From an uncultured Bacteroidales bacterium (GTDB taxonomy: Bacteria > Bacteroidota > Bacteroidia > Bacteroidales > WCHB1-69), in the NCBI GenBank assembly GCA_937901925.1, contig CALGTS010000015.1, positions 67,239 through 131,238 of the forward strand: a DNA stretch of 64,000 nt. Reading direction: 5' to 3'. The position numbers and the translations under genes were made by a program. The notes beneath the pieces are model-generated. The model had not been told where the DNA came from and did not search any database. It saw only the letters and a list, made by a program, of their open reading frames with translations. This document shows positions 5,138 through 52,572 of the stretch, in pieces. The stretch's first letter is position 1; each line of letters begins with the position of its first letter.

Positions 5138-5215
5138 TGGCGGTCCGGACGAGACTCGAACTCGCGACCCCATGCGTGACAGGCATGTATTCTAACCAAA
5201 CTGAACTACCGGACC
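5138..5215 (-). tRNA. tRNA-Asp (anticodon GTC), CCA encoded
   Basis: Reverse complement is GGTCCGGTAGTTCAGTTTGGTTAGAATACATGCCTGTCACGCATGGGGTCGCGAGTTCGAGTCTCGTCCGGACCGCCA. It folds by hand into a cloverleaf with a 7-bp acceptor stem, anticodon loop CTGTCAC and T-loop TTCGAGT. Confidence 0.92.
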
Positions 5216-22023: not shown

Positions 22024-23019
22024 ATGGAAAACGAAAAAAGAAACGAAGAAAGACTAAAAGTGCTCAATTCAACACTTGAAAAACTTGAAAAAACTTACGG
22101 AAAAGGTGCAATTATGAAACTGGGTGAAAAACCCGCAGAAAATATAGATGTTATCCCAACAGGCTCCTTAGGTTTAGATGTTGCTTTAGGAGTTGGAGGA
22201 TTTCCAAAAGGCAGAGTAATTGAAATTTTCGGACCAGAATCTTCTGGTAAAACTACCTTAGCAATTCACGCTATTGCAGAAGCTCAAAAAAATGGCGGAA
22301 TTGCAGCATTTATCGATGCGGAACATGCTTTTGATAGATTTTATGCTGAAAAATTAGGTGTTAATACTGCTGAACTTTTAGTTTCGCAACCCGATAACGG
22401 CGAGCAAGCTTTAGAAATTGCTGATAACCTAATCCGTTCAGGTGCTATCGACATTATCGTTATCGATTCTGTAGCCGCTCTTACTCCCAAAAGCGAAATT
22501 GAAGGTGATATGGGAGATTCGAAAATGGGACTTCAGGCAAGACTTATGTCACAAGCATTGAGAAAATTAACAGCAACAATCAGCAAAACAGGATGTTGCT
22601 GCATCTTCATCAACCAATTGCGCGAAAAAATCGGCGTGATGTTCGGAAATCCAGAAACCACTACAGGTGGTAATGCACTCAAATTTTACGCTTCCGTTCG
22701 TATCGATATCCGCAGAAGCTCACAAATCAAAGATGGTGATTCCGTTACTGGAAACCGCGTGAAAGTAAAAGTGGTAAAAAACAAAGTAGCACCTCCTTTC
22801 CGTAATGCTGAATTTGATATTCTTTATGGAGAAGGAATCTCAAAAGTGGGTGAAATCATTGATCTCGGCGTTGAGAAAAATATTATCAAAAAATCTGGCT
22901 CTTGGTTCTCCTACGGAGATTCCAAACTAGCACAAGGTCGTGAAGCCGCAAAACAGGTTCTTCTCGATAATCCTGAATTAGCTGAAGAATTAGAAAATAA
23001 GATTAAAGAGGTATTATAA
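22024..23019 (+). CDS. recA: recombinase RecA
   Basis: 331 aa. Walker [10 protein letters not shown] and a conserved RecA core throughout. Confidence 0.98.
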
Positions 23020-29503: not shown

Positions 29504-30400
29504 TTAAATCAGTAACCGGGTTTGCTTTCGGTATTCAGCATACTCGGGTTTGTTTGCTAACTGACGGTTTTCCATTAATGGAATACTGATACACATAAAC
29601 AACGCGGTCATAGCAATAGGACCTAAAATATACCAATCTATCCCATTAACGGCTGCATAGATAATCCAAATACCCCACCAAAACTGAATTTCACCGAAAT
29701 AGTTAGGATGACGACCATTCTTCCACAGCCCAACATTGCAGCACTTACCTGGATGAGCAGCACGAAAATTGTGAATCTGCTTATCTGCAATCAGTTGTAT
29801 AGTAGCAGAAGCCAAACAAACAACACAGCCAAACACCATTAGTACGTACCCAAGCCAACCCATCGTTTCGCTTCGCACAACACACTCACATTCATACAGT
29901 TGTAGCCCAGGAAGCATAGCCACAAAGACCACCAACGTGGGAACCATATTCAAACCGAAAAAATTAATCAAATGAAATAGCACAGGGTGCAGACTGCGAT
30001 ATTTGGTATAGCGCCAATCCTCATGAGCTATACCTTTGAAAGTGATTGCCCAATTGCGTGTCAATCTCCATCCCCAGTAGCACGATGCTACTAATAATAG
30101 TATCACAGGCAACGACCATACACTTGTATATATCCCCCATAACAAGAAAACAATAGGAGGAAACACACTCCAATATGGGTCATATACCGATACATTTTCA
30201 TATACCAATCCCCAAGCCCAAACTACTATCGTAGCTATCACATCTGCCACAAATAATGCCCAAAGAGGGTGTAAAATGGGCAACGAAAGAAAACCACTTC
30301 CTGTCAATTCTCTGAAAACTAACCAGCCAATCAAACTCGCAATTAGATAGATAGCTGTAATCAATATAATACTGCACCCTTTAGAATAGAACCGTTTCAT
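29504..30400 (-). CDS. DUF1295 / steroid-5-alpha-reductase-like integral membrane protein (intact copy)
   Basis: 298 aa, polytopic. The C-terminal motif NGRHPNYFGEIQFWWGIW is typical of the DUF1295/ICMT-like fold. Confidence 0.75.
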   Translation of the reverse strand: MKRFYSKGCSIILITAIYLIASLIGWLVFRELTGSGFLSLPILHPLWALFVADVIATIVVWAWGLVYENVSVYDPYWSVFPPIVFLLWGIYTSVWSLPVILLLVASCYWGWRLTRNWAITFKGIAHEDWRYTKYRSLHPVLFHLINFFGLNMVPTLVVFVAMLPGLQLYECECVVRSETMGWLGYVLMVFGCVVCLASATIQLIADKQIHNFRAAHPGKCCNVGLWKNGRHPNYFGEIQFWWGIWIIYAAVNGIDWYILGPIAMTALFMCISIPLMENRQLANKPEYAEYRKQTRLLI

Positions 30401-30582
30401 ATTAGTTATTAAACTGCAAAAGTACTACATTTTGTCGAAATATTAATTTACATGCCGAAAAATTATATTTTGTCATAATGAAAATAGTTAGTGTCCGAAA
30501 AATATATCCTTTTGCCCATAGTTTTAGGTTTGGGAGAAACAAAAATAACATAGAGGACTAAATCCGCAGAATGGAATCAGCC
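30042..30582. repeat. direct repeat copy A (541 nt), left boundary of the island
   Basis: Aligned by eye to 39564-40105. Substitutions occur only in about the first 135 nt and last 25 nt. About 380 central nt are identical. Confidence 0.95.
30417..30424 (-). promoter_or_regulatory. -7 promoter box (TACTTTTG on minus strand) of the DUF1295 gene
   Basis: The reverse complement of CAAAAGTA lies about 17 nt upstream of the ATG. It is duplicated at 39939-39946 inside the second repeat copy. Confidence 0.5.
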
Positions 30583-30641
30583 TTTTTTTTATTTTGGCAA
30601 AAAAAAGTTTTACTGGACACTAATAATTTAAAATAATTTCG

Positions 30642-30649
30642 TATTTTTG
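30642..30649 (+). promoter_or_regulatory. -7 promoter box P1 (TATTTTTG) at the island left end
   Basis: TAnnTTTG match in a very AT-rich stretch, about 130 nt upstream of the long hairpin. Confidence 0.4.
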
Positions 30650-30775
30650 CCAACATGTTCCATATTGGGCACCGTAAATGTATTTTTAACTTAAAAAATT
30701 GTAATATAGGAAATTAGAGATTAAAGAAACGAATTAAAAAAAACATATTAAAAGGCGTTTTCGCTTTTCTTTGGA

Positions 30776-30881
30776 TGTGGAAATCTGGACAATTTCCTCT
30801 ATGCTACACAAGAAAAGAGAAACGCTCACGATTGTTCGTGAGCTTTCTTGTTTGTAGCATAGGCAGTCCAGAGCCTCCACA
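30776..30881 (+). ncRNA. 106-nt long imperfect hairpin (candidate structured RNA or DNA hairpin element)
   Basis: Paired by hand: TGTGGA/TCCACA, TCTGGAC/GTCCAGA, CTATGCTACA-CAAGAAAG/CTTTCTTG-TTTGTAGCATAG, and CTCACGA-TTGT-TCGTGAG at the apex. Confidence 0.45.
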
Positions 30882-30983
30882 TAAACAATTGAAGTTCACG
30901 ATTTTTTTATGCCCGTTTGTGAAGCCCTAGAAGGGGACGAAAAAGAACCAAAAAAGAACCTAACTGCGTGAGGGAAAGAGAGG

Positions 30984-30991
30984 TACTTTTG
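30984..30991 (+). promoter_or_regulatory. -7 promoter box P2 (TACTTTTG) upstream of the radical SAM gene
   Basis: TAnnTTTG about 40 nt upstream of ATG 31032. Confidence 0.5.
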
Positions 30992-31031
30992 CGGCAAGGA
31001 ACGAGAAAGTATAAATTATAAAGAAAGAAAT

Positions 31032-32852
31032 ATGTTAGTAAGACAATGTAAAAACACGTTTATCCGGTTTATCGGCGAGATGGGGTACATCACCAACCAG
31101 ATGACTCGACACGATAGAACTTACAATGAAACAGGGGCCGATTTCTTGAGAGAGATTAACCGCCAGCCTCAGGAAGTGGACGATATTGTTGCCCGTCTGC
31201 GCAAAGTTTATAACGATAGTGTCTCTACGGAGGAATTGAGAGCGGACTTCATCGAATTTATCAAGGATTTGGACAAGCATCTCTTCCTTGTAGTGGGCGA
31301 AACACCCGAAGAGTTGGATGAAAAAGATTTGGATTTCTCTTACAGCATGGAGAATCCTAAAACTTTAGTGGAGGATTATACACAGGAGACAGATCAGCAA
31401 GTGGATGAAACCACGCAGGATTTCATGCTGGAAGCCACGCAACGTGAACCTCGGCTGAATGGTATACAGTTTGAACTAACCAGCCGCTGTAATGAAAGGT
31501 GCATTCATTGCTACATTCCTAACCCAAAGAAGAATGCGGGTGGCGACATGCCTGTTGAGAAAGTAAAATCATTGATAGATGAGTTCACAGATATGGGTGG
31601 ACTCCACGTGACTCTTTCCGGAGGAGAGGTGTTCTTGCACAGAGACATTATTGCCATAATGCAATATTGTAGAGAGAAAGACATGCAGATTTCCGTTCTG
31701 AGCAATTTGATTGCGTTGAAAGACGAGCTAATCCCTGCCATTAAAGAAGCCAATGTTTCTATTGTGCAAACTTCTCTATACAGTATGGATCCAGATATTC
31801 ACGACTTGATAACTACTGTGAAAGGCTCGCATGTGAAAACCAAGGCTGCCATTGAGAAGTTAGTAGCAGCAGATATTCCCGTGCAGATTTCCTGCCCTAT
31901 AATGAAAGCCAACTACCAAGGTTATGCCGAAGTGCTACAATATGCACAATCGCTACGCTGCAAAGCACAAACTGACTACATTCTGATAGCACAATCAGAT
32001 TTGAATACTACCAATTTAGCAAATCGTCTTTCTTTGGAGGAGACAGGACAATTACTAAAAGATATTATGAAATGGGACAAGGATTACAGAGAGGGTATCC
32101 TGAAACATTCTCCTCTTTCAGAAAAAATTGCTTTTGATCCCGAACAATTCGCTAAACAACCATTATGTGGTGCGGGAGTCAACAGTTGTTGTATTACAGA
32201 AAATGGCGATGTATATCCTTGTGCAGGATGGCAAGCAATGGTGTGCGGCAATGTATATCAGCAGAGTTTGAAGGATATTTGGGAAAATTCTCTGCAAATG
32301 AAGCAGATACGTGCTGTTACACAAGGAGATTTCCCTAAATGTTTGAAATGCAATGCCCGAGATTACTGCGCTATGTGCTTGGTGCGCAATTACAATGAGA
32401 GCGGTGGTAACATGTTCAAAATCAACCAGCACTTTTGTGATGTAGCTTTTATAAACAAAAAAGTGGTGGAAGAATATGCAGCATCCCATGCCGAGGATTA
32501 TGCTATGCACTATGAATGGTTAATATGCGATATCTACCAATGTAGTCGATATGGGGTGGACGCAGCCGATGCGGACAGATATAGAAGACTTGTAACAAAT
32601 TATTTCAAATTAGTTCAAGCACAAAATAATCCCTGTCAATATAATGTACGTGAATATAAAAAGGATTATCAAAGTATTTTGGAAGAGATAAACAATCATT
32701 TGAAGTATGCAATTGATAATTGCAGATGCAGAAAAACGGAAAGTTATCAAAAACTAGAAAAACTGAAAACTGATTTCCCTTTGTCCAATATTATAGCCAT
32801 AAACTATATGATAGATTCAATGCGGAACATTTTAAAAGAAGATAAACAATAA
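31032..32852 (+). CDS. radical SAM/SPASM peptide-modifying enzyme with fused N-terminal PqqD-like (RRE) domain and unassigned C-terminal extension
   Basis: 606 aa. N-terminus ..YNETGADFLREINRQPQEVDDIVARL..ELRADFIEFIKDL is PqqD-like. rSAM cluster CNERCIHCY with GGEVFL. SPASM cysteines CGAGVNSCCITENGDVYPCAG and CLKCNARDYCAMC...FCD. About 127 extra C-terminal residues. Confidence 0.88.
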   Translation: MLVRQCKNTFIRFIGEMGYITNQMTRHDRTYNETGADFLREINRQPQEVDDIVARLRKVYNDSVSTEELRADFIEFIKDLDKHLFLVVGETPEELDEKDLDFSYSMENPKTLVEDYTQETDQQVDETTQDFMLEATQREPRLNGIQFELTSRCNERCIHCYIPNPKKNAGGDMPVEKVKSLIDEFTDMGGLHVTLSGGEVFLHRDIIAIMQYCREKDMQISVLSNLIALKDELIPAIKEANVSIVQTSLYSMDPDIHDLITTVKGSHVKTKAAIEKLVAADIPVQISCPIMKANYQGYAEVLQYAQSLRCKAQTDYILIAQSDLNTTNLANRLSLEETGQLLKDIMKWDKDYREGILKHSPLSEKIAFDPEQFAKQPLCGAGVNSCCITENGDVYPCAGWQAMVCGNVYQQSLKDIWENSLQMKQIRAVTQGDFPKCLKCNARDYCAMCLVRNYNESGGNMFKINQHFCDVAFINKKVVEEYAASHAEDYAMHYEWLICDIYQCSRYGVDAADADRYRRLVTNYFKLVQAQNNPCQYNVREYKKDYQSILEEINNHLKYAIDNCRCRKTESYQKLEKLKTDFPLSNIIAINYMIDSMRNILKEDKQ

Positions 32853-32912
32853 GATTATGGAGTATTGCCGAAAATCCAATAAAGAGTAGGCTTTAATTAA
32901 AACTCAAAAAAA

Positions 32913-33053
32913 ATGAAAAATTACAAAAAGGTAAAAATGGTGGCAAAAAATGCCCCGAGTGGTTCGTACGCAGCAGGCTGCCGAGTGGACACAAGTAAAG
33001 GCAGAAAAAACATGACTGGCAGATACTGCGAAGAATGCCAGATGGCTTCGTAG
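32913..33053 (+). CDS. 46-aa Cys-containing small ORF, candidate RiPP precursor peptide
   Basis: Hand translation gives MKNYKKVKMVAKNAPSGSYAAGCRVDTSKGRKNMTGRYCEECQMAS. It starts 61 nt after the rSAM stop on the same strand and is followed by a stem-loop. It is not in the ORF track because it is under 60 aa. Confidence 0.5.
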   Translation: MKNYKKVKMVAKNAPSGSYAAGCRVDTSKGRKNMTGRYCEECQMAS

Positions 33054-33063
33054 AATTCATATT

Positions 33064-33091
33064 CCTCCCTCATTATTGTTGATGAGGGAGG
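33064..33091 (+). terminator. 10-bp GC-rich stem-loop after the small ORF (attenuator or partial terminator)
   Basis: CCTCCCTCAT-TATTGTTG-ATGAGGGAGG. There is no clear T-run after it. Confidence 0.4.
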
Positions 33092-33162
33092 GATTAATCA
33101 AAGCAGCGGAAGCCGAAAAGCTATAATAGAGTAGGAGAAACTTAAAAATAAATTAAAAACAC

Positions 33163-33372
33163 ATGGGTATTACTCTTTATGACACCCCTAAGGTTTATAA
33201 AATTAAAGATGAGAAACTTTGTCCGATTTTCCCTGCAACTATTGTGGTGAAAGGTGAATGCGAATTACAGACTGTTTACAATGATCAAACTCCCGAAATC
33301 AAGAGGTGGTTATTTGTTGACGACAAAGTTATGTATTCAGAAGAATTTATTCTGAAAAATTATACATTGTAA
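33163..33372 (+). CDS. hypothetical protein (69 aa)
   Basis: ORF-track entry, co-directional with the rSAM gene and followed by a strong terminator. No recognised motif. Confidence 0.5.
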   Translation: MGITLYDTPKVYKIKDEKLCPIFPATIVVKGECELQTVYNDQTPEIKRWLFVDDKVMYSEEFILKNYTL

Positions 33373-33385
33373 TATTTTGGAACTA

Positions 33386-33420
33386 AGACAGCCTACAGTT
33401 TTTTTTGTGGGCTGTCTTTT
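33386..33420 (+). terminator. rho-independent terminator
   Basis: AGACAGCCTAC-AGTTTTTTTT-GTGGGCTGTCT followed by TTT. Confidence 0.75.
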
Positions 33421-33437
33421 AATCTAAAGGAATAGTC

Positions 33438-33839
33438 ATGGATATAAACAATGAAAAATATCAAATAGGAGATATAGTGCAGAAACCAACAGGCGGCCCA
33501 GAAATGATAATCAGAGAAATAAATAGTGATGGGCGAATGATATGCGATTGGTTTGATGAAAATGATAGTTTATGTAACTCAGAAGTGACGGAGGCTGAGT
33601 TAAGATACCATCCAACAGAAACGTTTTCATTTTCTGTCGGCGATTTTGTGTCAACTAACCTTAATAGTGTTTTGAAAATGCAGGTTGTTGAAGTGAATGA
33701 TTCTATGGTTAGATGTGAATGGTACAACAAAAAGGGGGTGTTACAATCATCATACTTCAAAATAGAAGAGTTGGAGAAAGGGAGAATGTATGATGGAAAA
33801 GAAAAGTTTCTTCACGTAAATTATGTACCTTATAAGTAA
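33438..33839 (+). CDS. protein with two tandem YodC/DUF2158-like modules
   Basis: 133 aa. GDIVQKPTGGPEMIIREI..RMICDWFDEND and GDFVSTNLNSVLKMQVVEV..MVRCEWYNKKG both resemble the E. coli YodC pattern (V..K.GGP.M.V..... .C.W). Confidence 0.65.
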   Translation: MDINNEKYQIGDIVQKPTGGPEMIIREINSDGRMICDWFDENDSLCNSEVTEAELRYHPTETFSFSVGDFVSTNLNSVLKMQVVEVNDSMVRCEWYNKKGVLQSSYFKIEELEKGRMYDGKEKFLHVNYVPYK

Positions 33840-33845
33840 ATCAAC

Positions 33846-34118
33846 ATGGGCCTCCTTTCCGACCTCCTATTTCTGAATTTTATCAAACGCCGGGCCAAGC
33901 GCAAAGGGTGCGGCATCGGCGACATGGTGATGCTGAAAACCGGTAGTCCCGTTATGATGGTGGTGGATGTTGATCTTGAGGAGGCCGAATGCGAGTGGTT
34001 CTCCGAAAAGGATCAAAGGACACACCGCAAGTCGTTCATGTTTGAAATGCTCGTGAATGTAAACAATATTAATTCGAAAATAGATCAAAAATTTATAAAT
34101 CAAAAATCACTGAAATGA
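33846..34118 (+). CDS. YodC/DUF2158-like small protein
   Basis: 90 aa. GDMVMLKTGSPVMMVVDVDLEEAECEWFSEKDQ shows the same module. Its stop overlaps the next ATG (ATGA). Confidence 0.6.
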   Translation: MGLLSDLLFLNFIKRRAKRKGCGIGDMVMLKTGSPVMMVVDVDLEEAECEWFSEKDQRTHRKSFMFEMLVNVNNINSKIDQKFINQKSLK

Positions 34119-35293
34119 AAAAATCTTTGTTATTTACTACAATTTTGTTGCCTTTGTGCCTCATTGTGGCCAGCTGCGAAAACAACGCCGAAGTGAAAGT
34201 CACCACATACGAGCCAGCAAACATCACACCTAAGAGCGCAGAGTGTGGCGGTGATGTGGTGCTTAACGGGAACATCCCTTTAAGTGAATTGGGTGTCTGC
34301 TGGAGTACAAAACGCAATCCAACCCCGAATGACAATAAGATGTTTACAAGAGACTACCAGTATCCTTTCTCCTGTAAAATCACTCATCTCACGCCCGGTA
34401 CCAAATATTATGTGCGTGCATACGTTATTCGGGGACATCATGAGGCATACTATGGAAAGGAGATGTCCTTCACCACTCCTATCAACTCGAATAGCGGTGT
34501 GATAGAGGGCAGTCTCAGCGGCAAATTCTCTGTAGCAATGGGCGAACAGGTTTATTTCTCAAAAGGGAATCTGCAATTTCATCCGGTCCAACGAAAATGG
34601 CGTTTCGCCGAGCATCAATGGGACATCATTGGTGCAGAAAATGCTAATGTATCAGAAAACTACAATGGTTGGTTGGATCTGATGGGTTGGGCCACCAGCG
34701 GTTACAATAACTGCAACCCCTGGATGACCAGTTCTTCATCATTAGACTATGGAGAACTTTATGTTGATATTGCAGGAACCAATTACGATTGGGGTGTTTA
34801 TAATGCCATAAGCAATGGCGGAGGCCAGAAGGGGTTGTGGCGCACGCTGGAGTATTCAGAGCTGGTATATCTTTTCGAAACTCGTCATACTTCTTCGGGA
34901 AGCCGCTTTGCTAAAGCCACGGTGAACGGCATCTATGGTGTCATACTCCTTCCTGATGATTGGAACAACTCTTACTATTCGTTAAGCCACGTAAACGACA
35001 ACTCTATCAACGGAGAATACACTTACAATGTAATCAGCTTGTCGGATTGGAATAACAAGCTGGAGAGCCATGGAGCCGTATTTTTGCCTGCCGGTGGTGA
35101 TCGCATAGGCACTTCCATCCATTATTACAGCAATGGCATCCCCACAGCCGCCCAAGGTAATTACTGGACATCTTCCACACATAGCGGTGAACGCGCTTGG
35201 GCTTTATATTTCAGCGACCACTCCTGCTATTGGAACTATCCTGCTTATATCGGTCCCGCCAAGTCGGTCCGGCTAGTCAGGGATGTGGAATAA
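34115..35293 (+). CDS. surface lipoprotein whose C-terminal half resembles the Fibrobacter-succinogenes-paralogous (TIGR02145-like) domain
   Basis: 392 aa. Lipobox LIVASC. N-terminal Ig/FN3-like segment (GVCWSTKRNPT). C-terminal pattern GLWRTLEYSELVYLF..AVFLPAGGDR..YWTSS..AWALYFS..SVRLVRD, recalled from memory as typical of that family. Confidence 0.6.
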   Translation: MKKSLLFTTILLPLCLIVASCENNAEVKVTTYEPANITPKSAECGGDVVLNGNIPLSELGVCWSTKRNPTPNDNKMFTRDYQYPFSCKITHLTPGTKYYVRAYVIRGHHEAYYGKEMSFTTPINSNSGVIEGSLSGKFSVAMGEQVYFSKGNLQFHPVQRKWRFAEHQWDIIGAENANVSENYNGWLDLMGWATSGYNNCNPWMTSSSSLDYGELYVDIAGTNYDWGVYNAISNGGGQKGLWRTLEYSELVYLFETRHTSSGSRFAKATVNGIYGVILLPDDWNNSYYSLSHVNDNSINGEYTYNVISLSDWNNKLESHGAVFLPAGGDRIGTSIHYYSNGIPTAAQGNYWTSSTHSGERAWALYFSDHSCYWNYPAYIGPAKSVRLVRDVE

Positions 35294-35633
35294 CATGATT
35301 TTTCAAAGATTAGTACTAAACAAATATATCACAGTTATGAGTTTTTATTCAGCAAAAACGGGTTTGGAAATACTAGTATGGTCTATGTTGAGCATAGAAA
35401 AAAATCATCGAATGAAATATGAGACAAAGAAAAGAGTCAATGACACGTTAGACATTCTGGAACGCGAGACTTTTTTAGGACCGGATTTTATCGCTGAAAT
35501 ATACAAATTTAGAAGATTGTTCCGCTCTTTGGAGCCTCTTGATACTATACAAGATGAGGATGAATATGAAATGATTAGTGATCAAATTAAGGAGTCCATG
35601 GACAAATGTTTAGCGATCTTGGCATGTTATTAA
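35283..35633 (+). CDS. hypothetical protein (start uncertain; 35337 ATG also possible)
   Basis: 116-aa ORF in the packed operon. Acidic C-terminal half. No motif recognised. Confidence 0.45.
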   Translation: MWNNMIFQRLVLNKYITVMSFYSAKTGLEILVWSMLSIEKNHRMKYETKKRVNDTLDILERETFLGPDFIAEIYKFRRLFRSLEPLDTIQDEDEYEMISDQIKESMDKCLAILACY

Positions 35634-35652
35634 CCAATATAATTGTATAATT

Positions 35653-36117
35653 ATGCAACCCCAAACCTACATCCAGTTATTAGAAATCCTCACCTGTATG
35701 GGAGTGTACAATGCCAGAGTGTATAACTTCAAAGACAATCCTAAAGAGGTGGCCCAGTGTGCCGACGGCCTCAAGGAGATGGCGGAAGACCTGCAATTGC
35801 TTGGCTCCAAAACCTTCAACCCGTCACTGTGGCAAAAGTTCTGCAAAGAGTTGCATGGCGACAAACCTGTAGATATTGCCGCATCGGAACTCCAATCGGA
35901 AGCGTGGCGGCAAATTTTGCAGATACTGCCCCGCATCGCCTCCACAGCAGCCGTGTTGGAGGGAAAATGCCAGGATCCCGAAACGGTGGCCCACATCACT
36001 GCCCGTGAACTCAAACCGCTCCTCAACCAATGCAACGAACTGCTCGATAGCGAGCGCACTGAAATCCGTGGCAAAAGTTTCCTTGAAAGGGTTATGGAGA
36101 AGCTCGGACGAAAATAA
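35653..36117 (+). CDS. hypothetical protein (154 aa, helical)
   Basis: It is the longest ORF here that is co-directional with its neighbours. Antisense ORFs in this stretch are explained by the high GC. Confidence 0.55.
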   Translation: MQPQTYIQLLEILTCMGVYNARVYNFKDNPKEVAQCADGLKEMAEDLQLLGSKTFNPSLWQKFCKELHGDKPVDIAASELQSEAWRQILQILPRIASTAAVLEGKCQDPETVAHITARELKPLLNQCNELLDSERTEIRGKSFLERVMEKLGRK

Positions 36118-36135
36118 AAATACCTTATCGCTATC

Positions 36136-36864
36136 GTGACAGATCACCACACTCATATTGGTCAATTCTACGACATTTACACGTCTCCTTCGGAACTAAT
36201 TCATGTAATGGATTCCGTAGAAGTGGAGCGGTTTGCTTGTTCTTCAACCACTATATGCGAAGGAAATTATGAAAAAGTGTTGTCGGAAATGTCTGAATTG
36301 GTTCGCCTTGCTGTAAATCGTGTGTTACCTGTTCTGTGGATGCTTCCGCAAATGTTGTCGGATGGTGGTTTGCAACGCTTTTTGGATAGTGGTATTCCTT
36401 GGAAGATGTTGAAAATCCATTCTCAACTGAATCCGTTGGCATGGCAATGTGGAAGCAGGCGTTTGCAAAAAGTGGTTCGGTTGTCCAAACAGCTGAATCT
36501 GCCATTGCTGATTCACACAGGAGAAAGTCCAGGTTGCTATCCTTCTTTGTTCGAGCGTGCTATTCGTTACAATCCGTCTGTTACATTCATTTTGGCACAC
36601 GGTCGCCCATTGGACGAAACCATTTCGCTTATGCGAAAATATCCCAATGTTTTGACAGACACCGCTTTTATGCCTGTGAAACATGTCGCAAAACTCTGTC
36701 ATTTCGGTCTCGCTCACCGTATTCTTTGGGGTACAGATGTCCCCATACAACGATATTACAGCCGTAAAGAAGACATCGTAGTTTATTACAAAAAACGTCT
36801 ATGCGAGTTGCGTGATGTTGTCTCAAATGAACATTATGAAACAATCATTTCAAATATCATATAA
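36136..36864 (+). CDS. metal-dependent amidohydrolase (Amidohydro_2/TIM-barrel hydrolase-like)
   Basis: 242 aa with a GTG start. N-terminal DHHTH metal motif, then LLIHTGE, ILAHGRP and ILWGTDVP strand-end motifs. Confidence 0.65.
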   Translation: MTDHHTHIGQFYDIYTSPSELIHVMDSVEVERFACSSTTICEGNYEKVLSEMSELVRLAVNRVLPVLWMLPQMLSDGGLQRFLDSGIPWKMLKIHSQLNPLAWQCGSRRLQKVVRLSKQLNLPLLIHTGESPGCYPSLFERAIRYNPSVTFILAHGRPLDETISLMRKYPNVLTDTAFMPVKHVAKLCHFGLAHRILWGTDVPIQRYYSRKEDIVVYYKKRLCELRDVVSNEHYETIISNII

Positions 36865-36900
36865 AAAAAGTACAAATCGTAAAAATTTCAAATATAATTC

Positions 36901-37134
36901 ATGGACAACACTTTCATCAATGCTATGCTCGCCCTGCATACCCTTGCCGCCAAGGAGACTTTCGGATCGGACGCTGTGGTGGCACTGAACGCCGGAGAGC
37001 CAGGTGTGTACGAGAACAACCCTACCATTATCGAATATGAGCAAAAGGGCTACAAATTCTGTGATGCCAACATGTTCGGAGAAGGGTTGGAAAGAATGGA
37101 AACGCTCACTTTCAGGAAAATGAACAAAGGTTGA
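36901..37134 (+). CDS. hypothetical protein (77 aa)
   Basis: ORF-track entry, co-directional and closely spaced. Confidence 0.45.
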   Translation: MDNTFINAMLALHTLAAKETFGSDAVVALNAGEPGVYENNPTIIEYEQKGYKFCDANMFGEGLERMETLTFRKMNKG

Positions 37135-37161
37135 TAAGGTTAGCGTAAAATATCCAATAGA

Positions 37162-38094
37162 ATGTCAGAAAAGAAATGGAAGATAGACAGCCGGGTGCCG
37201 CACAAATATCGTGGCGGTCGTAGAGGGAAAGGTTCGGAGTTCCCGCGCCACGGCATGAACGAATACGAGGGTGAACGGCTCTCCATGAGCAAACACAGAC
37301 TTTCCAAACACAAAACGATGAGCTACAACAAAGGAAACGGTTGGGCATCGTTGCATGAAAAACATATAGAAGGACTCCTTAACAAGTACCTCAACAAGCC
37401 ATTCGACGAGATGCTGAGCGAATTTTACGCCAAAACCAAATCGCTGCGCCAAAGCGGACGACAACGTATGTGGAACACCCCATCCTACTTCTCTCATGAT
37501 GTGGATGGGTTTAAACATCGCCGATATGTGTCATGGGAAGAGAAAAAGTATTATGTCGATGACAACGGCATTCTCCGTCTAAAGGATAACCATGCCGACA
37601 GCACCCCGAAGACAAAATTGACCCGCAAACAGAAAGCCTACAACCGTCAAGTTCCGGTGCCCACATTCGGCTTGAAAACTGACCAGTTCGAACTTTTAAG
37701 ACAAAAGTACGACACCGCCGATCTTTTTGTGGGAGAATATTACGCTATAGTGGATGGAGAAGTTTGCAAAGTGCCGATTTACACCTCGCCAAAGACAGAA
37801 AATGATTACGAATTGTCTGACAGAATTGCCGTGGATGGTTTTAGTTTTGATGCAAAATTCAACCATGTTTTTTGGAACTACACTTATAAAAAAGCGAACA
37901 GCTACAAAACCGAAGTCCGTGAAAAATTGGAGGCTTTGAAAAAAGAAAACAATAATGAAAATGAGGACGATGTGGCGCGCATGGAGCGTCGGATCTGTTC
38001 CATGAAGGATTATTGGACAATGCACGGATGCATGGCTCTGGAGTTTTATACAAAGAAAATAGACTATATACGATCAAACAAAAATAGAAGTTAA
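37162..38094 (+). CDS. hypothetical protein (310 aa, basic N-terminus)
   Basis: Long ORF with an Arg/Lys-rich N-terminal 60 aa. No domain recognised. Confidence 0.6.
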   Translation: MSEKKWKIDSRVPHKYRGGRRGKGSEFPRHGMNEYEGERLSMSKHRLSKHKTMSYNKGNGWASLHEKHIEGLLNKYLNKPFDEMLSEFYAKTKSLRQSGRQRMWNTPSYFSHDVDGFKHRRYVSWEEKKYYVDDNGILRLKDNHADSTPKTKLTRKQKAYNRQVPVPTFGLKTDQFELLRQKYDTADLFVGEYYAIVDGEVCKVPIYTSPKTENDYELSDRIAVDGFSFDAKFNHVFWNYTYKKANSYKTEVREKLEALKKENNNENEDDVARMERRICSMKDYWTMHGCMALEFYTKKIDYIRSNKNRS

Positions 38095-38111
38095 CAAAAA
38101 CCCTATATACT

Positions 38112-38390
38112 ATGTACCGTCAATTCACCGCCTCCCGCATTTCCGAATCCAACGTGCTGTTCCCGCCCACCATTATCTTCAATGATGAGGGCATCACCAT
38201 CAAAACACCGGCGCTGCTGCACCACAACACCGACTTCATCCCATACGAGGCGGTGTCGAGTGTGATGATCCACACCCCGCTCGCTGGCTTCTCCACCATT
38301 ACCTTCTACGCTTACGGCCGCGAAATCCGCGTTCACGGCTTCCTCCAACGCGAGGTGCGCGAGATGAAACAGTTGGTGGAAGAGAGGTAG
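38112..38390 (+). CDS. hypothetical protein (92 aa; possibly a bacterial PH-like fold)
   Basis: The pattern ..PPTIIFNDEGITIKTP....IPYEAVSSVMIHTPLAGFSTITFYAYGREIRVHGF weakly resembles bPH domains. Low certainty. Confidence 0.45.
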   Translation: MYRQFTASRISESNVLFPPTIIFNDEGITIKTPALLHHNTDFIPYEAVSSVMIHTPLAGFSTITFYAYGREIRVHGFLQREVREMKQLVEER

Positions 38391-38440
38391 AATGTAACAA
38401 CCTTTTGTAGTTAGATATTTACATTTTTATATACAGTTGA

Positions 38441-38476
38441 TTTAAAAAGGAGGGCTTTCACCCCCTCCTTTTTAAA
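38441..38476. terminator. bidirectional terminator hairpin
   Basis: TTTAAAAAGGAGGG-CTTTCACC-CCCTCCTTTTTAAA. The A-run and T-run flank a GC stem between convergent genes. Confidence 0.75.
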
Positions 38477-38608
38477 TCAAGTTTTTTGCTTCATTCTCAA
38501 GGAAAAACTTTGTTTCTCCCAAGGCATATATTCGGTAGCTCAACTCCATTGCCAATTCATCACTCAAACGCTCTATCTTTTCGGCAATGCCATTGCGCCA
38601 CTTTTCGT

Positions 38609-38893
38609 CTATCCTTGCCTTTTTGCCGTTGTAAAACATTTAATGGCAGTTTTATACGTGCAGCCCAGACGAACGGCAAAAAGTAACATATCAGGGTCTA
38701 TAACTTTGTAAATCAGCCTCAGTTCCTTATCTGTCAGCCCCGCTAACTCTTGGTACAGCCGTTTTTCAATTTCTATCAGCCCCAAGTTTAAGTGGTCAAC
38801 AAAGTTGTCTATGGCATGCCCTAATTGGTCGGATTTTCCTTCGGCAAGTTTATACTCCTCTGTTTTGGTCGTAATTAATTCACTCATAATCAA
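38609..38893 (-). CDS. hypothetical protein (94 aa), possibly the N-terminal part of a frameshifted gene
   Basis: ORF-track entry. A 55-codon ORF (38639-38472, minus strand) overlaps its end in another frame. Confidence 0.45.
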   Translation of the reverse strand: MIMSELITTKTEEYKLAEGKSDQLGHAIDNFVDHLNLGLIEIEKRLYQELAGLTDKELRLIYKVIDPDMLLFAVRLGCTYKTAIKCFTTAKRQG

Positions 38894-39276
38894 TCTTTAT
38901 ATACTATTGTATTTATAATTGTTGAGGTTAAATTTCATTTCCCATCTTCCTCCTACAACATATGCAATTTGGCAGGATTTTGGTTGCTTAAGTGGTTTTT
39001 CGTTCACCTTGCTTATGTTGCCAACCTGCACTTGTGCGTTATGCGAACATTACACATGTACAAGGGTGTAACCATGCGGAGATATAACACAAATGGAGAT
39101 GTAACCGATGCGGAAACCAAAACAAGCGTTAAAGGTGCGGACATTGCACCACTTTTTACAGTATTATATATAACTATACAATCTCATACATCATAGTTGT
39201 TAAAAAAAATGGTGCAAAACAAATATAATTATCAGTAAAATAATAAATTACATACCTACTGTGTTTGAAAAAATTG

Positions 39277-39284
39277 TACCTTTG
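39277..39284 (+). promoter_or_regulatory. -7 promoter box (TACCTTTG) in the non-coding right end of the island
   Basis: TAnnTTTG match with no convincing ORF downstream. Confidence 0.3.
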
Positions 39285-39556
39285 CCGCGTAAAAAAAGCA
39301 CGTTCTTTGTCAAGGTATATATGGGCTATATATAGCGACAGTTGTGGCATTTGCAACTCAAATTGGTGTAACAGCTATAATGCGCCAATGTACTAACCCC
39401 ATATATTTAAAAGGAAAACCAGCCAAGTGTAGGTTGGTATTCGGCTATGTGAGGTTTAAGGTGGCTCACCCGATTTTACGGGATTCGCGCCAAAATTCTA
39501 TAATAATTCACAAATGCCGAAATTGGGAATCGGTCAAGTGTTTGTGCGCTAAAAGA

Positions 39557-39922
39557 TTACACGGTAATTACCCAATTGCGTGTCAATCGCCATCCCCAGT
39601 ACCACGATGCTACTAATAATAGTATCACAGGCAACGACCATACATTTGTATATATCCCCCATAACAAGAAAGCAATAGGAGGAAACACACTCCAATAGGG
39701 GTCATATACCGATACATTTTCATATACCAATCCCCAAGCCCAAACTACTATCGTAGCTATCACATCTGCCACAAATAATGCCCAAAGAGGGTGTAAAATG
39801 GGCAACGAAAGAAAACCACTTCCTGTCAATTCTCTGAAAACTAACCAGCCAATCAAACTCGCAATTAGATAGATAGCTGTAATCAATATAATACTGCACC
39901 CTTTAGAATAGAACCGTTTCAT
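39557..39922 (-). pseudogene. truncated duplicate of the DUF1295 gene (first ~118 codons plus 3 foreign codons)
   Basis: The 121-aa ORF is nearly identical to the N-terminus of 29504-30400 (differences V/A, S/N, C/W, A/V). It ends ...RNWVITV* at the repeat boundary. Confidence 0.9.
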
Positions 39923-40105
39923 ATTAGTTATTAAACTGCAAAAGTACTACATTTTGTCGAAATATTAATTTACATGCCGAAAAATTATATTTTGTCATAA
40001 TGAAAATAGTTAGTGTCCGAAAAATATATCCTTTTGCCCATAGTTTTAGGTTTGGGAGAAACAAAAATAACATAGAGGACTGAATCCTGCAGAATGGAAT
40101 CAGCC
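39564..40105. repeat. direct repeat copy B (542 nt), right boundary of the island
   Basis: See copy A. One extra T (AATCCTGCAG versus AATCCGCAG). Confidence 0.95.
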
Positions 40106-40187
40106 CTAAATTATTCATGCAAAAAAGTTTTATCGAATAAATAAAAGAGAGAAACAAGTCCGTATGAAGAGAGGTTTTCCGCACAAA

Positions 40188-40844
40188 CTATAAATCGGTA
40201 TGTTTCACATTAATACCTTCTACTAAATAGACCAAATCTTCAGCAATGTTGGTGCAGCAATCACCGATACGCTCCAACATATACAGCACACGACTCAAAT
40301 TGAGATAGGAAGGCATAATGTCTGCTTTTACATCATTTTGAAAGAGTTGGCGGTGAATTTCGTGGTAATAATCATCCACTTGGTCATCCGTAGCGATAAT
40401 ATTGCGGGCAATATAATCATTTTCCGTTTCGAAAGCGTAAATAATATTTTCGTTCATTTTCTGCACCATTGAGAAGAGACTCCGAATTTTATGCTGATAA
40501 GGTTTCCACACTTCATCAGAATTGGCAATAATAGGAAGCCTTTTGTTGATACTATTGAGCAGATCACCCATTCTTTCCATATCAATAATGATGTTGAGCA
40601 GAGCGATAATGCGGCGCAAATCGCGGGCACGCGGCGTAAGACGGACAATATCGTTTACGATGCTCTCGCGAAATTGAATCTCATATTGATCCAATTGTTT
40701 CTCATTGGCTTTTATCTTTGCGGTCGTTTCTAAGTTAATAGGACCATCAATCTGTTTTTCGAGTAGCGAAAATTGCTCCGTCAGCAATTTAGCCATTGCT
40801 GCGAAATCCTCATTCATTTTCTTTAAAGATTCTTCTCTTATCAT
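40188..40844 (-). CDS. phoU: phosphate signalling complex protein PhoU
   Basis: 218 aa. Two PhoU repeats with ERIGD/ERMGD motifs. Downstream of pstB. Confidence 0.93.
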   Translation of the reverse strand: MIREESLKKMNEDFAAMAKLLTEQFSLLEKQIDGPINLETTAKIKANEKQLDQYEIQFRESIVNDIVRLTPRARDLRRIIALLNIIIDMERMGDLLNSINKRLPIIANSDEVWKPYQHKIRSLFSMVQKMNENIIYAFETENDYIARNIIATDDQVDDYYHEIHRQLFQNDVKADIMPSYLNLSRVLYMLERIGDCCTNIAEDLVYLVEGINVKHTDL

Positions 40845-43379: not shown

Positions 43380-44435
43380 TTATTTTGTGCTTTCACTAAC
43401 ACTATACTGAATGTTATCTATATTTTTGAATGCTTGGGTTTGAACCGCTTTCGGAAGTGGAGCATAATGAATCTGTTCTGAAATTTTTTGCATATCATCA
43501 GAGATTATAAATCGGAGCATTTCTTTTATGCCTTCTGCTTCCATTTGAGTGCGTTTACCATTATTCAAATCTTTTTTCACGATAATCCAAGTGAATAAAC
43601 TGATGGGATAAGCATCTGGTATTTCGGAATTGGTAATCATACAGCGCATATCTTCAGGTATTTCCCCTTGTGCGGCTGCTGAAATGCTGGCTGCTGACGG
43701 CTTGACAAACTTACCACTTTGATTCTGCAAGTTGGCATAGGTGAGTTGCTGTGCAAACGCATATTCTGAGCCGATATAGCCGATAGTTCCTTCCGTTTGA
43801 CTGAGTACGCCTGCAATACCCGTATTTCCCTTTGCAGCAATACCCGTCGGGAAAGAGACCGCCTTGCCAAAACCGAACCTATTTTTCCAATCTTCACTCA
43901 CTTTGCTGAGATAATCTGTGAAGACAAAGGTGGTACCACTGCCATCAGAACGATAAACGGGAGAGATTTTTTTGTGCGGAAGTGCTACACCCTCATTTAT
44001 AACTTGTATTTGCTCGTCATCCCAATAGGAGATTTCACCAGCAAAAATCTGCGCTACCAACTCACCCGTCAGATTCAACTCCTGAATTCCTGGCAGATTG
44101 TAAGCAACTACTACAGCTCCCATGCAAGTAGGAATATGGAATACATCACCAATCTCAGCCATCTCTTCGTCAGAAAGGTAAGCGTCGCTGCCTGCAAAAT
44201 CCACAACACCTTCTTTCAAACTATTGATTCCTCCACCACTGCCGATACCTCCATAAGTTACTTTGTTATGCGTTTCATCGTAAAATTTTTTGAATACTAT
44301 AGAGTAGAAAGGTTGCGGAAATGTAGCTCCAGCTCCAGTAATGTTTACTGAAGAAGTGTTGTTCTTACAACTTACTGCTAATAAAGAAATTATAGTAGCA
44401 ATAATCATTAGTTTTCCTTTTTTAATCTTTTTCAT
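43380..44435 (-). CDS. pstS: phosphate ABC transporter substrate-binding lipoprotein PstS
   Basis: 351 aa. Lipobox LLAVSC. Contains GAGATFP and GSG.G motifs. Confidence 0.9.
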   Translation of the reverse strand: MKKIKKGKLMIIATIISLLAVSCKNNTSSVNITGAGATFPQPFYSIVFKKFYDETHNKVTYGGIGSGGGINSLKEGVVDFAGSDAYLSDEEMAEIGDVFHIPTCMGAVVVAYNLPGIQELNLTGELVAQIFAGEISYWDDEQIQVINEGVALPHKKISPVYRSDGSGTTFVFTDYLSKVSEDWKNRFGFGKAVSFPTGIAAKGNTGIAGVLSQTEGTIGYIGSEYAFAQQLTYANLQNQSGKFVKPSAASISAAAQGEIPEDMRCMITNSEIPDAYPISLFTWIIVKKDLNNGKRTQMEAEGIKEMLRFIISDDMQKISEQIHYAPLPKAVQTQAFKNIDNIQYSVSESTK

Positions 44436-44487
44436 TTTTTCTTTTTTTTAGTTGTGCAAAAAAAGCTTTATTAAATTACATTAAAGT

Positions 44488-44513
44488 TGTCTTTCTGTTA
44501 CGTTTTTGTTACA
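44488..44513 (-). promoter_or_regulatory. Pho-box-like tandem heptamers upstream of pstS
   Basis: Minus strand reads TGTAACA-AAAA-CGTAACA-GAAA-GACAAC (7+4+7+4 spacing). Confidence 0.55.
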
Positions 44514-45498
44514 ATTTTACCTCGATATTTAAATAACCTAAGAGGGTGATTTCGGAGACGCCCGCGCGCGGAACCGCCGCTCTGAAGTTTGGCGAAATTT
44601 TAAAGTGCGAATTTGGCGAGTATTGGAAACCTATCAATGCCGCCATCTCATCCTTGCTTTGGTCTTGTCGGCGTTGCGAAAGCAGTAGATCGTAACGGGC
44701 GAAAAGTTCAAATTTCTTGGGCAGTTTCAAAGTGACAAATGCCGATACACCTTGCATATTTTTCCCAAACTCCCCTTTTGCGTTCCATATCGTAGCGTAT
44801 TCTGCTCCAACACCTACTTTTTTCCCTTTGTAACCCACAAAGAGAGTGAGATTTTCCTGTCCTGTCAGCGTGGAATCTTGGTCGTGGTACGAACCATAAA
44901 CACGAAGAGTGAGTGAAGAGATGGGATTGAAGGTCACTCCCAAACCATACAAGAAGTACGGGTCCATTTTCAAATTTTTATATCCGTCGCCATTAACAAA
45001 GGTAAAATCCGCCTTTACCCAAGATGCAAATTTATATTGTGCCACCAATCCCAAGTCGGCGCTGGAACCAAATTTATATTGGTCTTGAAACGATTTGTAC
45101 AAGTAGCGATGTCCCCACGCTTTTTCTTGAACCGAAAACTGTTCCATTCCCGTGAGCCCTGCGTGAAGAGTGAAATTCCCTTTATGCCAAGTAATACACG
45201 CATTTTTTAAATAAGCAAGTTTCGTAAGGTCAAAAACTTCCGACGATTTACCCACATCCAAAACCACTTTTGCCGATAATCCTTCGGTGAACTGATATTG
45301 ATAACCTAAGTAGGCGCGCTCAATGCTGAATCCTGTGTTTTTGGTATCAGTAAACTCAGAATGAAAATCACCAAAAAGAGTTAAAATCATTTTCCCTTTG
45401 GGTTTGAAAACGTTGGCTGTGCTGTCTTTTTGCGCCCAAAGTACAGGCTTTGCCAAGATAAATAATACACTTAAAATTAATAGAGTAATCTTTTTCAT
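44509..45498 (-). CDS. putative porin (phosphate-regulated by context)
   Basis: Start taken at MKKITLLILSVLF (signal peptide). Beta-barrel-like alternating sequence. It has its own Pho-box promoter copy. Confidence 0.6.
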   Translation of the reverse strand: MKKITLLILSVLFILAKPVLWAQKDSTANVFKPKGKMILTLFGDFHSEFTDTKNTGFSIERAYLGYQYQFTEGLSAKVVLDVGKSSEVFDLTKLAYLKNACITWHKGNFTLHAGLTGMEQFSVQEKAWGHRYLYKSFQDQYKFGSSADLGLVAQYKFASWVKADFTFVNGDGYKNLKMDPYFLYGLGVTFNPISSLTLRVYGSYHDQDSTLTGQENLTLFVGYKGKKVGVGAEYATIWNAKGEFGKNMQGVSAFVTLKLPKKFELFARYDLLLSQRRQDQSKDEMAALIGFQYSPNSHFKISPNFRAAVPRAGVSEITLLGYLNIEVKL

Positions 45499-45550
45499 TT
45501 TTTCTTTTTTTTTGTTGTGCAAAAAAAGCTTTATTAAATTACATTAAAGT

Positions 45551-45576
45551 CGTCTTTCTGTTACACTTTTGTTACA
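45551..45576 (-). promoter_or_regulatory. Pho-box-like tandem heptamers upstream of the porin gene
   Basis: Minus strand reads TGTAACA-AAAG-TGTAACA-GAAA-GACGAC. Confidence 0.55.
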
Positions 45577-45675
45577 TTTTTTGAAGGATTACACGACAGA
45601 ATTTTTCTCAAAAACCATAAAAAAAAGCACCCCGACAAAGCAGGGTGCTTGGCGCAATTCAAATTTATCACTCTT

Positions 45676-52501: not shown

Positions 52502-52572
52502 GGGTCTCTTGGCCGAGTGGCTAGGCACCGGTCTGCAAAACCGTTTACTCCAGTTCGAATCTGGAAGAGACC
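52502..52572 (+). tRNA. tRNA-Cys (anticodon GCA), no encoded CCA
   Basis: GGTCTCT/AGAGACC acceptor stem, anticodon loop CTGCAAA, T-arm TCCAG-TTCGAAT-CTGGA, discriminator T. One C-T mismatch at the top of the anticodon stem. Confidence 0.85.

Follow-up and report, generated by a model that had tools for sequence, protein, structure and literature searches.

A cargo island without an integrase gene between duplicated DUF1295 segments of an uncultured Bacteroidales bacterium, probably the remnant of a tRNA-Asn-specific element

How can a genomic island that is bounded by long direct repeats, and that encodes no recombinase of its own, come to lie beside an intact copy of the gene from which these repeats derive? 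The question is raised by a 64,000-nucleotide (nt) stretch of contig CALGTS010000015.1 from an uncultured Bacteroidales bacterium (positions 67,239 to 131,238; hereafter the window). It contains an intact gene for a DUF1295 protein of 298 amino acids (aa) (29504-30400, minus strand; open reading frame (ORF) list and Pfam PF06966, E = 1.6e-37), an insert of 8,951 nt running from a structured leader to a non-coding arm (30613-39563), and a second, truncated copy of the promoter-proximal part of the same gene. The locus is flanked by a gene for a Cys/Met pyridoxal phosphate (PLP) enzyme on the left and by phoU-pstBACS on the right. The insert, a truncated integrative island, is probably the stranded, integrase-less remnant of an element that normally enters a tRNA-Asn gene and that here landed in DUF1295; a later event would then have rebuilt the gene and left a duplication of about 570 bp.

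The direct repeats are a duplicated target segment, with one copy in the intact gene and the other truncated. They had been placed at 30042-30582 and 39564-40105 in an earlier note on this DNA, and a repeat search followed by MAFFT alignment bears out both the positions and the differences listed there: five substitutions in the gene-internal ~135 nt, an identical centre of ~380 nt, and one substitution and one 1-nt indel near the upstream end. Beyond a divergent patch of ~19 nt, homology is regained for 12 nt (TAAAACTTTTTT), so that the duplicated unit extends further, to 30612 and 40132. It comprises DUF1295 upstream DNA, the promoter, the ATG and the first ~115-120 codons. The left repeat R (30042-30612, minus strand, 571 nt) consists of a 212-nt upstream stretch that includes the promoter box, followed by the ATG and the 5' portion of the coding region. 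The right repeat R' (39564-40132, minus strand, 569 nt) holds the orphaned native promoter and 5' part of DUF1295, and at its outer end it passes into the phoU flank as in the native sequence. A Bacteroidetes-type TAnnTTTG box (TACTTTTG) can be read 5' of the ATG in both copies, and R' gives rise to the truncated ORF of 121 aa (39557-39922, minus strand). The order of intact gene, insert and promoter-proximal fragment is as the earlier note described it. Exact-protein look-ups with the DUF1295 protein of the window and with the radical S-adenosylmethionine (radical SAM) protein of the insert returned no record.

Relatives were collected by a DUF1295 scan of one genome per species, with the PhoU protein as an additional anchor. 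The phoU gene (40188-40844, minus strand; Pfam PhoU) forms the native right flank and its product is 100% identical across strains. The PhoU/DUF1295 sample evidently represents one species, an uncultured Paludibacteraceae-like member of the Bacteroidales, with a flank divergence of 0.6-2%. An empty site with a single repeat copy, which the earlier note had proposed to look for, exists in exact form at seven loci of this species (L001, L089, L090, L091, L093, L095 and L096), where the PLP enzyme gene, DUF1295 and phoU are contiguous. The DUF1295 gene of the window is 99% identical to the gene at these empty sites. About half of the long contigs sampled carry the island, a frequency that counts the places displayed together with those collapsed as similar (16/24 long contigs read), and island-bearing strains are no closer to one another in their flanks than to empty strains. 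The comparison shows presence and absence of the island to be alleles that segregate within the species. Among 79 DUF1295 loci of other species there is no synteny of DUF1295 with the PLP enzyme gene and phoU and there are no island genes, the one exception being a stretch resembling the leader in L067.

At least four island variants occur with the same two junctions where these are sequenced. In addition to the window type there is a 7.1-kb island (L081/L087, L088 and L092) with both repeats present, in which 32980-35651 is replaced and the C-terminal half of the radical SAM gene is 74-89% identical. A third variant (L094) has genes for an FGE-sulfatase and an FtsK-like protein, among others, joined to a window-type right part from 35651, and a fourth (L099) encodes RloB/AAA_21, DUF559 and Band_7/GYF_2 proteins and has only a 400-nt leader and a terminal gene of 138 codons in common with the window. 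The contigs do not reach the left end of L094 or the right end of L099. The left junction (junction A) is identical in the window, L081, L083 and L099, with a few substitutions beside it in L084, and is the same in L088 and L092 as well, while the right junction (junction B) is common to every variant with a sequenced right end. A second 121-aa ORF in L094 was considered as a tandem third repeat and rejected, as it is a spurious ORF in the arm.

Junction B links the island to a family of integrative elements. The island ends with the 138-aa gene (38472-38893, minus strand), which is frameshifted in the window into ORFs of 94 and 55 aa and intact in L081 and L094, and with the element arm, a conserved non-coding segment of ~690 nt (38894-39579, minus strand) that would correspond to the P-arm of an attachment (att) site. 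The arm ends at the att core, and its last part (39564-39579) is partly overwritten toward DUF1295 sequence. Homologues of the 138-aa gene are few, and in other genomes it is always linked to the arm. Arm homologues were found in L097 and L100 (~70% identity) and in L106 and L107 (~99% over ~270 nt); L100 was the one useful locus from a protein-based metagenome scan, and a metagenome search with a DNA pattern for the arm gave 0 matches. At all four loci the homology to the window arm ends exactly where a 3' fragment of tRNA-Asn starts. This fragment begins at the anticodon loop CTGTTAA, has the sequence CTGTTAATCAGAGGGTCC(A/T)AGGTTCAAGTCCT(T/A)GAGGGAGCGC, and agrees at 42/43 positions with a tRNA-Asn(GTT) called by ARAGORN, from the anticodon loop to the acceptor end. 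True tRNA-Asn reference sequences came from L050 and L109. ARAGORN finds no complete tRNA in the four fragment loci and Rfam does not report the half-tRNA, whose identity is set by the comparison with the ARAGORN-called genes.

The surroundings of these fragments give the likely architecture of the parent family. L097 is attR-like, the tRNA fragment being backed by chromosomal DNA (an AraC gene). L106 and L107, metagenome contigs of 4.2-4.4 kb, carry in order an integrase gene, a hairpin, the tRNA-Asn 3' fragment, the core, the arm and the 138-aa gene, an order that appears attP-like. Their integrase has 398 aa and a Phage_int_SAM_5 domain (E = 1.7e-10), and the L106 protein shows full-length homology to proteins named site-specific integrases by NCBI/JGI, several of which have PF00589. 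L109 represents attL, with an intact tRNA-Asn gene, then the same hairpin and then a 64%-identical integrase. In L097, L100, L106, L107 and L109 the terminus of the element family adjoins a core identical to the tRNA part. The insert itself (30613-39563) lacks an integrase gene, while the related elements in L106, L107 and L109 have one. The earlier note had seen no integrase, transposase or relaxase in the insert, and none of these domains was detected among 16 inter-repeat ORFs using Pfam or among 10-12 ORFs using NCBIfam, PADLOC and PHROGs. Likewise, tblastn with the L106 integrase gave no match in the window or in any fetched locus of the same species.

Within the species, junction B retains traces of this origin to different degrees. 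L081 and L083 have kept the tRNA-type core, with arm sequence GGTAATTACACAGTGA, core CTGTTAA and DUF1295 sequence TCTCC in direct succession. When read in tRNA orientation, L084 has ...ACACAATTGC on the arm side, core GTGTCAA and TCGCC on the DUF1295 side; the window has ...ACCCAATTGC, core GTGTCAA (39580-39586, converted) and TCGCC; and L094 has GGTGATTGCCCAATTGC, core GTGTTAA and TCGCC. The intact gene reads AGTGATTGCCCAATTGC, core GTGT(T/C)AA and then TC(G/T)CC at the same site, which is a putative pseudo-att core in codons ~113-115 (30058-30064; GTGTCAA on the plus strand in the window, GTGTTAA in other strains). From L081 over L084 and the window to L094 the junction thus forms a graded series of growing overwrite toward DUF1295 sequence. 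The native DUF1295 site matches the core and the first arm bases at 13/14 positions when compared with the arm and core of L097. Junction B may accordingly be read as made by an integrase at a look-alike site, GTGTTAA, in DUF1295. The island lies in DUF1295 codons ~113-115 and not in a tRNA gene, the nearest tRNAs of the window being tRNA-Asp at 5138 and tRNA-Cys at 52503. The earlier note had stated that its own explanation would be contradicted by a recombinase that recognises this gene via a short att core within the repeat. The junction suggests something close to that, with two differences: the core is found at the repeat edge, and the integrase gene has apparently since been lost.

The two repeat copies evolve in concert. 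In an alignment of all copies, the two window copies have variants in common that are unique to them, and the two L081 copies have other variants in common. Such genome-private variants in both copies show that these exchange sequence by gene conversion, with the centre being homogenised. Copy-to-copy identity is 98.7% in the window and 94.7% in L081. The 19-nt outer patch exists as two alleles. GCATGAA-TAATTTAG is found at all empty sites and in the phoU-side copy of the window and L094, while TTGCCAAAATAAAAAAAAG (in gene orientation) is found in every island-adjacent left copy and in both L081 copies, and in 0/7 empty sites. The divergence at the repeat edges had earlier been ascribed to an incoming copy from a related, non-identical genome. 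The sequences instead suggest that the outer-edge divergence is a population polymorphism, and that the inner-edge divergence is element-arm sequence that has been overwritten stepwise by conversion from the intact copy.

Junction A is of a different kind. At 30612/30613 (within 30607-30620), DNA from upstream of the DUF1295 promoter (...TAAAAC), which is the upstream end of the repeat, meets a point just upstream of the island promoter. Neither an att-like core nor a tRNA fragment is present here, and the core is accordingly not repeated at both ends of the island. The parent-type contig L101 has this leader too (94% identical), followed by further element genes, encoding a 174-aa ORF, a pentapeptide-repeat protein and a 508-aa protein. 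As the leader there continues into more element genes, junction A appears to have been joined illegitimately at a position inside the parent element.

The leader itself (30642-30885, plus strand) consists of the promoter of the cargo operon (TATTTTTG, 30642-30649) and a long hairpin at ~30775-30882 with the tip GCTCACGA/TCGTGAGC at 30824-30843. RNAalifold analysis of five sequences (window, L099, L101, L085 and L067) gave 50 pairs, 13 of which are compensatory. The leader (~400 nt) is common to all island variants with a sequenced left end, and in L099 and L101 it heads unrelated cargo. It has no Rfam match, and its hairpin region (30750-30885, plus strand) is a candidate for a new cis-regulatory RNA or small RNA. 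A 51-codon ORF upstream of the radical SAM gene (30775-30930) overlaps the conserved leader hairpin and is therefore probably non-coding. At L085, a 107-nt piece of the hairpin is found as a direct repeat (7946-8052 and 9735-9841) around an AAA_14/DUF4143 ATPase gene, and this arrangement sits just upstream of the radical SAM cluster of that locus.

These observations can be joined in an account of how the island may have arisen. The parent would belong to a family of small islands found in Paludibacteraceae-like Bacteroidales of the mouth and gut, which integrate into tRNA-Asn(GTT) at the anticodon loop by means of a tyrosine integrase of ~400 aa. Its order would be integrase, further cargo, promoter and structured leader, variable cargo operon, 138-aa gene and ~690-nt arm. 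We infer from junction B that such an element entered a secondary site in DUF1295, where GA-TTAACAC-GCAAT resembles the att sequence GA-TTAACAG-GCA(A/C)T, and that the gene was split at codons ~113-115. The promoter and the 5' part, now R', would then have been left beside phoU and joined to the element arm, and at the other end a reciprocal junction is predicted in which the tRNA-Asn 3' part and core are fused to DUF1295 from codon ~116 onward, for example GGACCCTCTGATTAACACGCAATTGGGCAATCAC. Insertion of tRNA-specific elements at look-alike secondary sites inside genes, with impaired later excision, has been documented for ICEBs1 and SGI1 (PMC3715440; PMC2297512), and experiments have shown that elements at secondary sites excise poorly and harm their host (PMC3715440).

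Junction A and the intact left copy point to a second, illegitimate event that restored the gene and removed the integrase end. One join of DUF1295-upstream DNA to the point just upstream of the leader promoter would give the intact gene to the left of the island, duplicate ~555-570 bp and discard the integrase end. Such a loss fits with the poor excision and host harm seen at secondary sites (PMC3715440). The join might have resulted from an aberrant excision like that giving rise to lambda-dgal; a circle carrying R' and part of the element would then have inserted into an intact DUF1295 gene by a single homologous (Campbell) crossover. Alternatively, it could be due to homology-facilitated illegitimate recombination with incoming DNA carrying the intact allele, a process that is documented (PMC3240628). 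Since then, as seen from the comparison of strains, the copies have converted each other, the island has become a presence/absence allele, and interior cargo has been swapped between leader and arm. Having a single att-type junction and lacking an integrase, the island can no longer be excised site-specifically, and today it can move or be lost only by homologous recombination, via the repeats or the flanks.

Some points weigh against this account. No intermediate was found in which DUF1295 is split by a complete element with the reciprocal junction, and no informative microhomology was found at junction A. The contigs L106 and L107 are short, so that their order could represent excised circles or equally well tandem copies of the parent element in the sampled communities, and they may come from another species than the window. 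A catalytic domain was not detected in the L106 protein itself by Pfam, NCBIfam or PDB sequence search, including scans of its C-terminal half, but only in its homologues; the protein is identified as an integrase by its SAM_5 domain and by these homologues. Both routes for the second event are viable. The empty sites may be ancestral or the result of pop-outs; none of them has the island-linked patch. Finally, the 8-nt identity GATTAACA between the core region and DUF1295 is common by chance, with ~4 occurrences expected per 64 kb. The case consequently rests on the element terminus coinciding with the tRNA core, not on the match.

The same coincidence bears on the explanations that dispense with an integrase. 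The earlier note had proposed a Campbell-type insertion, in which a circle carrying a 5' fragment of DUF1295 from a related strain enters by one crossover. Taken as the whole story, this would mean arbitrary junctions and no part for a site-specific recombinase. The topology, the one-copy empty sites and the lack of a recombinase gene in the island all agree with this, and so do the island-linked variants at the island-proximal ends of both repeats; their placement is predicted by a single crossover, but equally by simple linkage. The right junction is not arbitrary, however. The inner end of the fragment falls exactly on the att terminus of the tRNA-Asn element, whose tRNA-type core L081 and L083 still have; a fragment with an arbitrary end would not coincide with this terminus. 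Nor does this explanation offer a source for a circle that already carries the fragment. A Campbell insertion as the whole story is therefore regarded as quite improbable, while a Campbell crossover stays viable as one of the two ways in which the second event may have come about. An overlap of 115 nt between the ends of L082 was considered as evidence for a circle and rejected, as it is equally expected from repeat collapse in an assembly with k=141. It also seems improbable that the island was inserted illegitimately through microhomology, with end-joining or replication slippage at the 8-14-nt similarity GATTAACA.GCAAT making the duplication in the same event. The 13/14 similarity between the DUF1295 site and the L097 arm and core is of the kind such a process would use, and junction A is clearly illegitimate. 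The break would, however, have had to fall by chance on the exact att boundary of the element, and the microhomology consists of the anticodon-loop core together with the first bases of the arm, which an integrase would read. No well-described end-joining route is known in Bacteroidales.

Could the repeats instead be functional att sites, with the core inside the 570-bp repeats, of a cis-mobilizable element that is moved by a resident integrase acting in trans? Clean empty sites, an approximately 50:50 presence among the long contigs sampled and an island presence that is not clustered by flank haplotype would all be expected of such an element. Only the right copy adjoins the arm, however, while the left core lies 550 nt from junction A within an intact gene, so that recombination between the two cores would be indistinguishable from homologous recombination. 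A tyrosine recombinase has no need of 570-bp repeats that evolve in concert, and no integrase was seen in the 64-kb window or in the same-species loci. This is held to be very unlikely. That the arrangement is a chimeric join or a collapsed strain mixture is barely credible. Short-read contigs do break at the repeats (L082-L084), but the same duplicated layout recurs in independent assemblies from other samples (L081/L087, L088, L092 and L094), L081, L088 and L092 extending across the two repeats into the flanks on either side; the differences between the copies are at fixed positions and the junctions are reproducible. The remnant of a tRNA-Asn island, stranded in DUF1295 and followed by repair of the gene, thus remains the probable explanation.

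The component processes, namely tRNA-specific integrative islands, secondary-site integration and insertion-duplication, are known. As in other tRNA-targeting tyrosine-integrase islands and mobilizable elements, such as NBU of Bacteroides and ICEBs1 at tRNA-Leu, the parent family has its integrase beside the reconstituted tRNA, leaves a duplicated tRNA 3' part starting from the anticodon loop, and shares its arm between sites. The window copy differs in having no integrase and only one att-type junction, in being bracketed by a duplication of ~570 bp from the 5' part of the target gene, and in its target, a protein-coding gene struck in the middle of the ORF and apparently repaired later. The transducing phages lambda-dgal and lambda-dbio resemble it in that host DNA, here a promoter and the 5' part of a gene, is attached to a partial element without the integrase end. 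Their product is also an intact gene, the element and a gene fragment, and it is unstable through homologous pop-out. The window island, in contrast, comes without evidence of phage or packaging functions, a circle is postulated only on one of the two routes, and the same product could be formed without any circle through homology-facilitated illegitimate recombination.

Insertion-duplication with a suicide vector gives an identical final topology when the cloned fragment holds a promoter and a 5' end. Here the event is natural, one fragment end is an att junction, and the repeats have since evolved in concert long enough to vary from strain to strain (94.7-98.7% identity between copies). Cis-mobilizable elements (CIMEs) and decayed att-flanked islands likewise hold accessory cargo without recombination or transfer genes, bounded by direct repeats and polymorphic within a species. 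In those the repeats are att sites, while the window has a long target duplication, with an att core at one end only. A limited literature search gave no case that combines one att junction and one illegitimate junction with a promoter-proximal duplication of ~570 bp that repairs the gene, concerted evolution of the repeats and cargo swapping.

If the proposed origin is right, the locus documents in nature what follows when a tRNA-specific island is inserted by mistake into a coding gene. Both the cost and the poor excision seem to have been overcome together in the host lineage, by rebuilding the gene and deleting the integrase end, and the result would be a stable yet recombinogenic accessory locus with cargo that varies between near-identical strains. 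It would explain the origin of an island that has long direct repeats but no recombinase, and it cautions that such repeats are neither necessarily att sites nor proof of a purely homologous insertion. It also exposes for study an uncharacterised tRNA-Asn island family, a conserved structured leader RNA and a widespread radical SAM/DUF2158/amidohydrolase cargo, in poorly known Paludibacteraceae-like Bacteroidales from oral, gut or rumen metagenome samples. A further suggestion, which is rather doubtful, is that the duplication has turned the dead element into a recombinase-free cassette driven by RecA. A circle with one repeat would then pop out and re-enter empty sites by Campbell crossover, and leader and arm would serve as homology handles for swapping cargos of defence type or resembling ribosomally synthesized and post-translationally modified peptide (RiPP) clusters. 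In that case the locus would be a plug-in site for homologous recombination and not a scar.

A second indel bracketed by repeats is found 4.3 kb from the island. Direct repeats of 96 nt (44423-44518 and 45486-45581, 95% identical), holding the pstS promoter and the first four codons, flank a gene for a Porin_O_P protein (44509-45522, minus strand). L089, L090 and L093-L096 have this gene, L081, L088, L091 and L092 lack it and retain one repeat copy, and all four combinations of this indel with the island are seen. On the doubtful reading of a cassette driven by RecA, this second indel with promoter-duplicating repeats, about 4 kb off, would hint that the mode is general in this organism.

As regards the insert itself, the earlier note had considered it compositionally foreign and made up of non-core genes. 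The GC content is indeed raised, at 41.3% compared to 36.6% in the rest of the window, although less than its hand counts of 47% and 58% on single lines had suggested. Windows of the same size elsewhere have a mean of 37.05% (sd 1.6, maximum 40.0), and the island value is reached by 0/90 of them. The deviation is real but moderate, and it is driven by a few GC-rich genes, such as o92 with a third-position GC fraction (GC3) of 0.80. The value of 35% that the note gave for recA does not hold; the ORF at 22024-23019, named through the RecA Pfam match of its syntenic L081 counterpart, has 38.8%. The foreign nature of the cargo is borne out by L085, an unrelated locus that carries the same set of genes at 93% nucleotide identity and lacks the last 1.2 kb of the island (38391-39563), that is, the 138-aa gene and the arm.

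The first cargo gene encodes a radical SAM/SPASM enzyme of 606 aa with an N-terminal PqqD-like domain (31032-32852, plus strand; Pfam, NCBIfam and homologues). Its C-terminal half is hypervariable between strains, with 74-89% identity over 31500-32750 against a background that is >99% identical. The protein is far under the cutoff of every NCBIfam equivalog that it matched, and although the radical SAM, SPASM and PqqD-like domains of a RiPP maturase are present, no convincing precursor peptide was identified beside them. The remaining cargo (32857-38390, plus strand) comprises two DUF805b RNA motifs, a 69-aa ORF, two DUF2158 proteins, a 392-aa lipoprotein, ORFs of 116 and 154 aa, an Amidohydro_2 protein and ORFs of 77, 310 and 92 aa. 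The two RNA motifs (32857-32892 and 33103-33137, plus strand; 35.8 and 44.7 bits, above the Rfam gathering threshold) are both placed between the radical SAM gene and the small ORFs 3' of it. In strains of the L081 type, the 2.7 kb at 32980-35651 (the 69-aa ORF, a DUF2158 gene, the lipoprotein gene and the 116-aa ORF) are replaced by ~0.8 kb. Together with 31500-32750 this region looks like a diversifying or recombining segment within the cargo.

In other genomes the cargo has defence-type genes as neighbours (AbiE, RloB/AAA_21 and AAA ATPases), while PADLOC reported only a generic radical SAM resemblance to viperins among the island proteins. PHROGs and NCBIfam assigned no function to the small island proteins. 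The only PHROGs match was a DUF2158-type family of function unassigned, with no structural or packaging match, and none of the viral contigs scanned matched the 310-aa protein or the arm sequence; the insert is accordingly not regarded as a phage or prophage remnant. For the 138-aa protein, a role as excisionase or regulator was suspected, but it is unsupported by structure prediction. The AlphaFold2 (AF2) model is all-helical with a pLDDT of 78, and Foldseek found no match better than E = 0.2.

An imperfect palindrome of 44 nt (38437-38480, 86% self-complementary, core AAAAAGGAGGG...CCCTCCTTTTT), probably a terminator acting in both directions, is found between the convergent genes for the 92-aa and 138-aa proteins. 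The 3' end of the 92-aa gene (38263-38388 in the window) is an insertion hot spot in other genomes, with AAA ATPase genes in L085 and RloB/AAA_21 pairs in L097 and L099. Duplicated pieces of this 3' end, 33-140 nt long, bracket the inserted genes together with end sequences rich in TGTACA (L085: 16972-17194, 18777-18890 and 20430-20569; L097: 10500-10533 and 12597-12672; L099: ~480-506 and 2561-2680). The hot spot may represent another small type of site-specific cassette.

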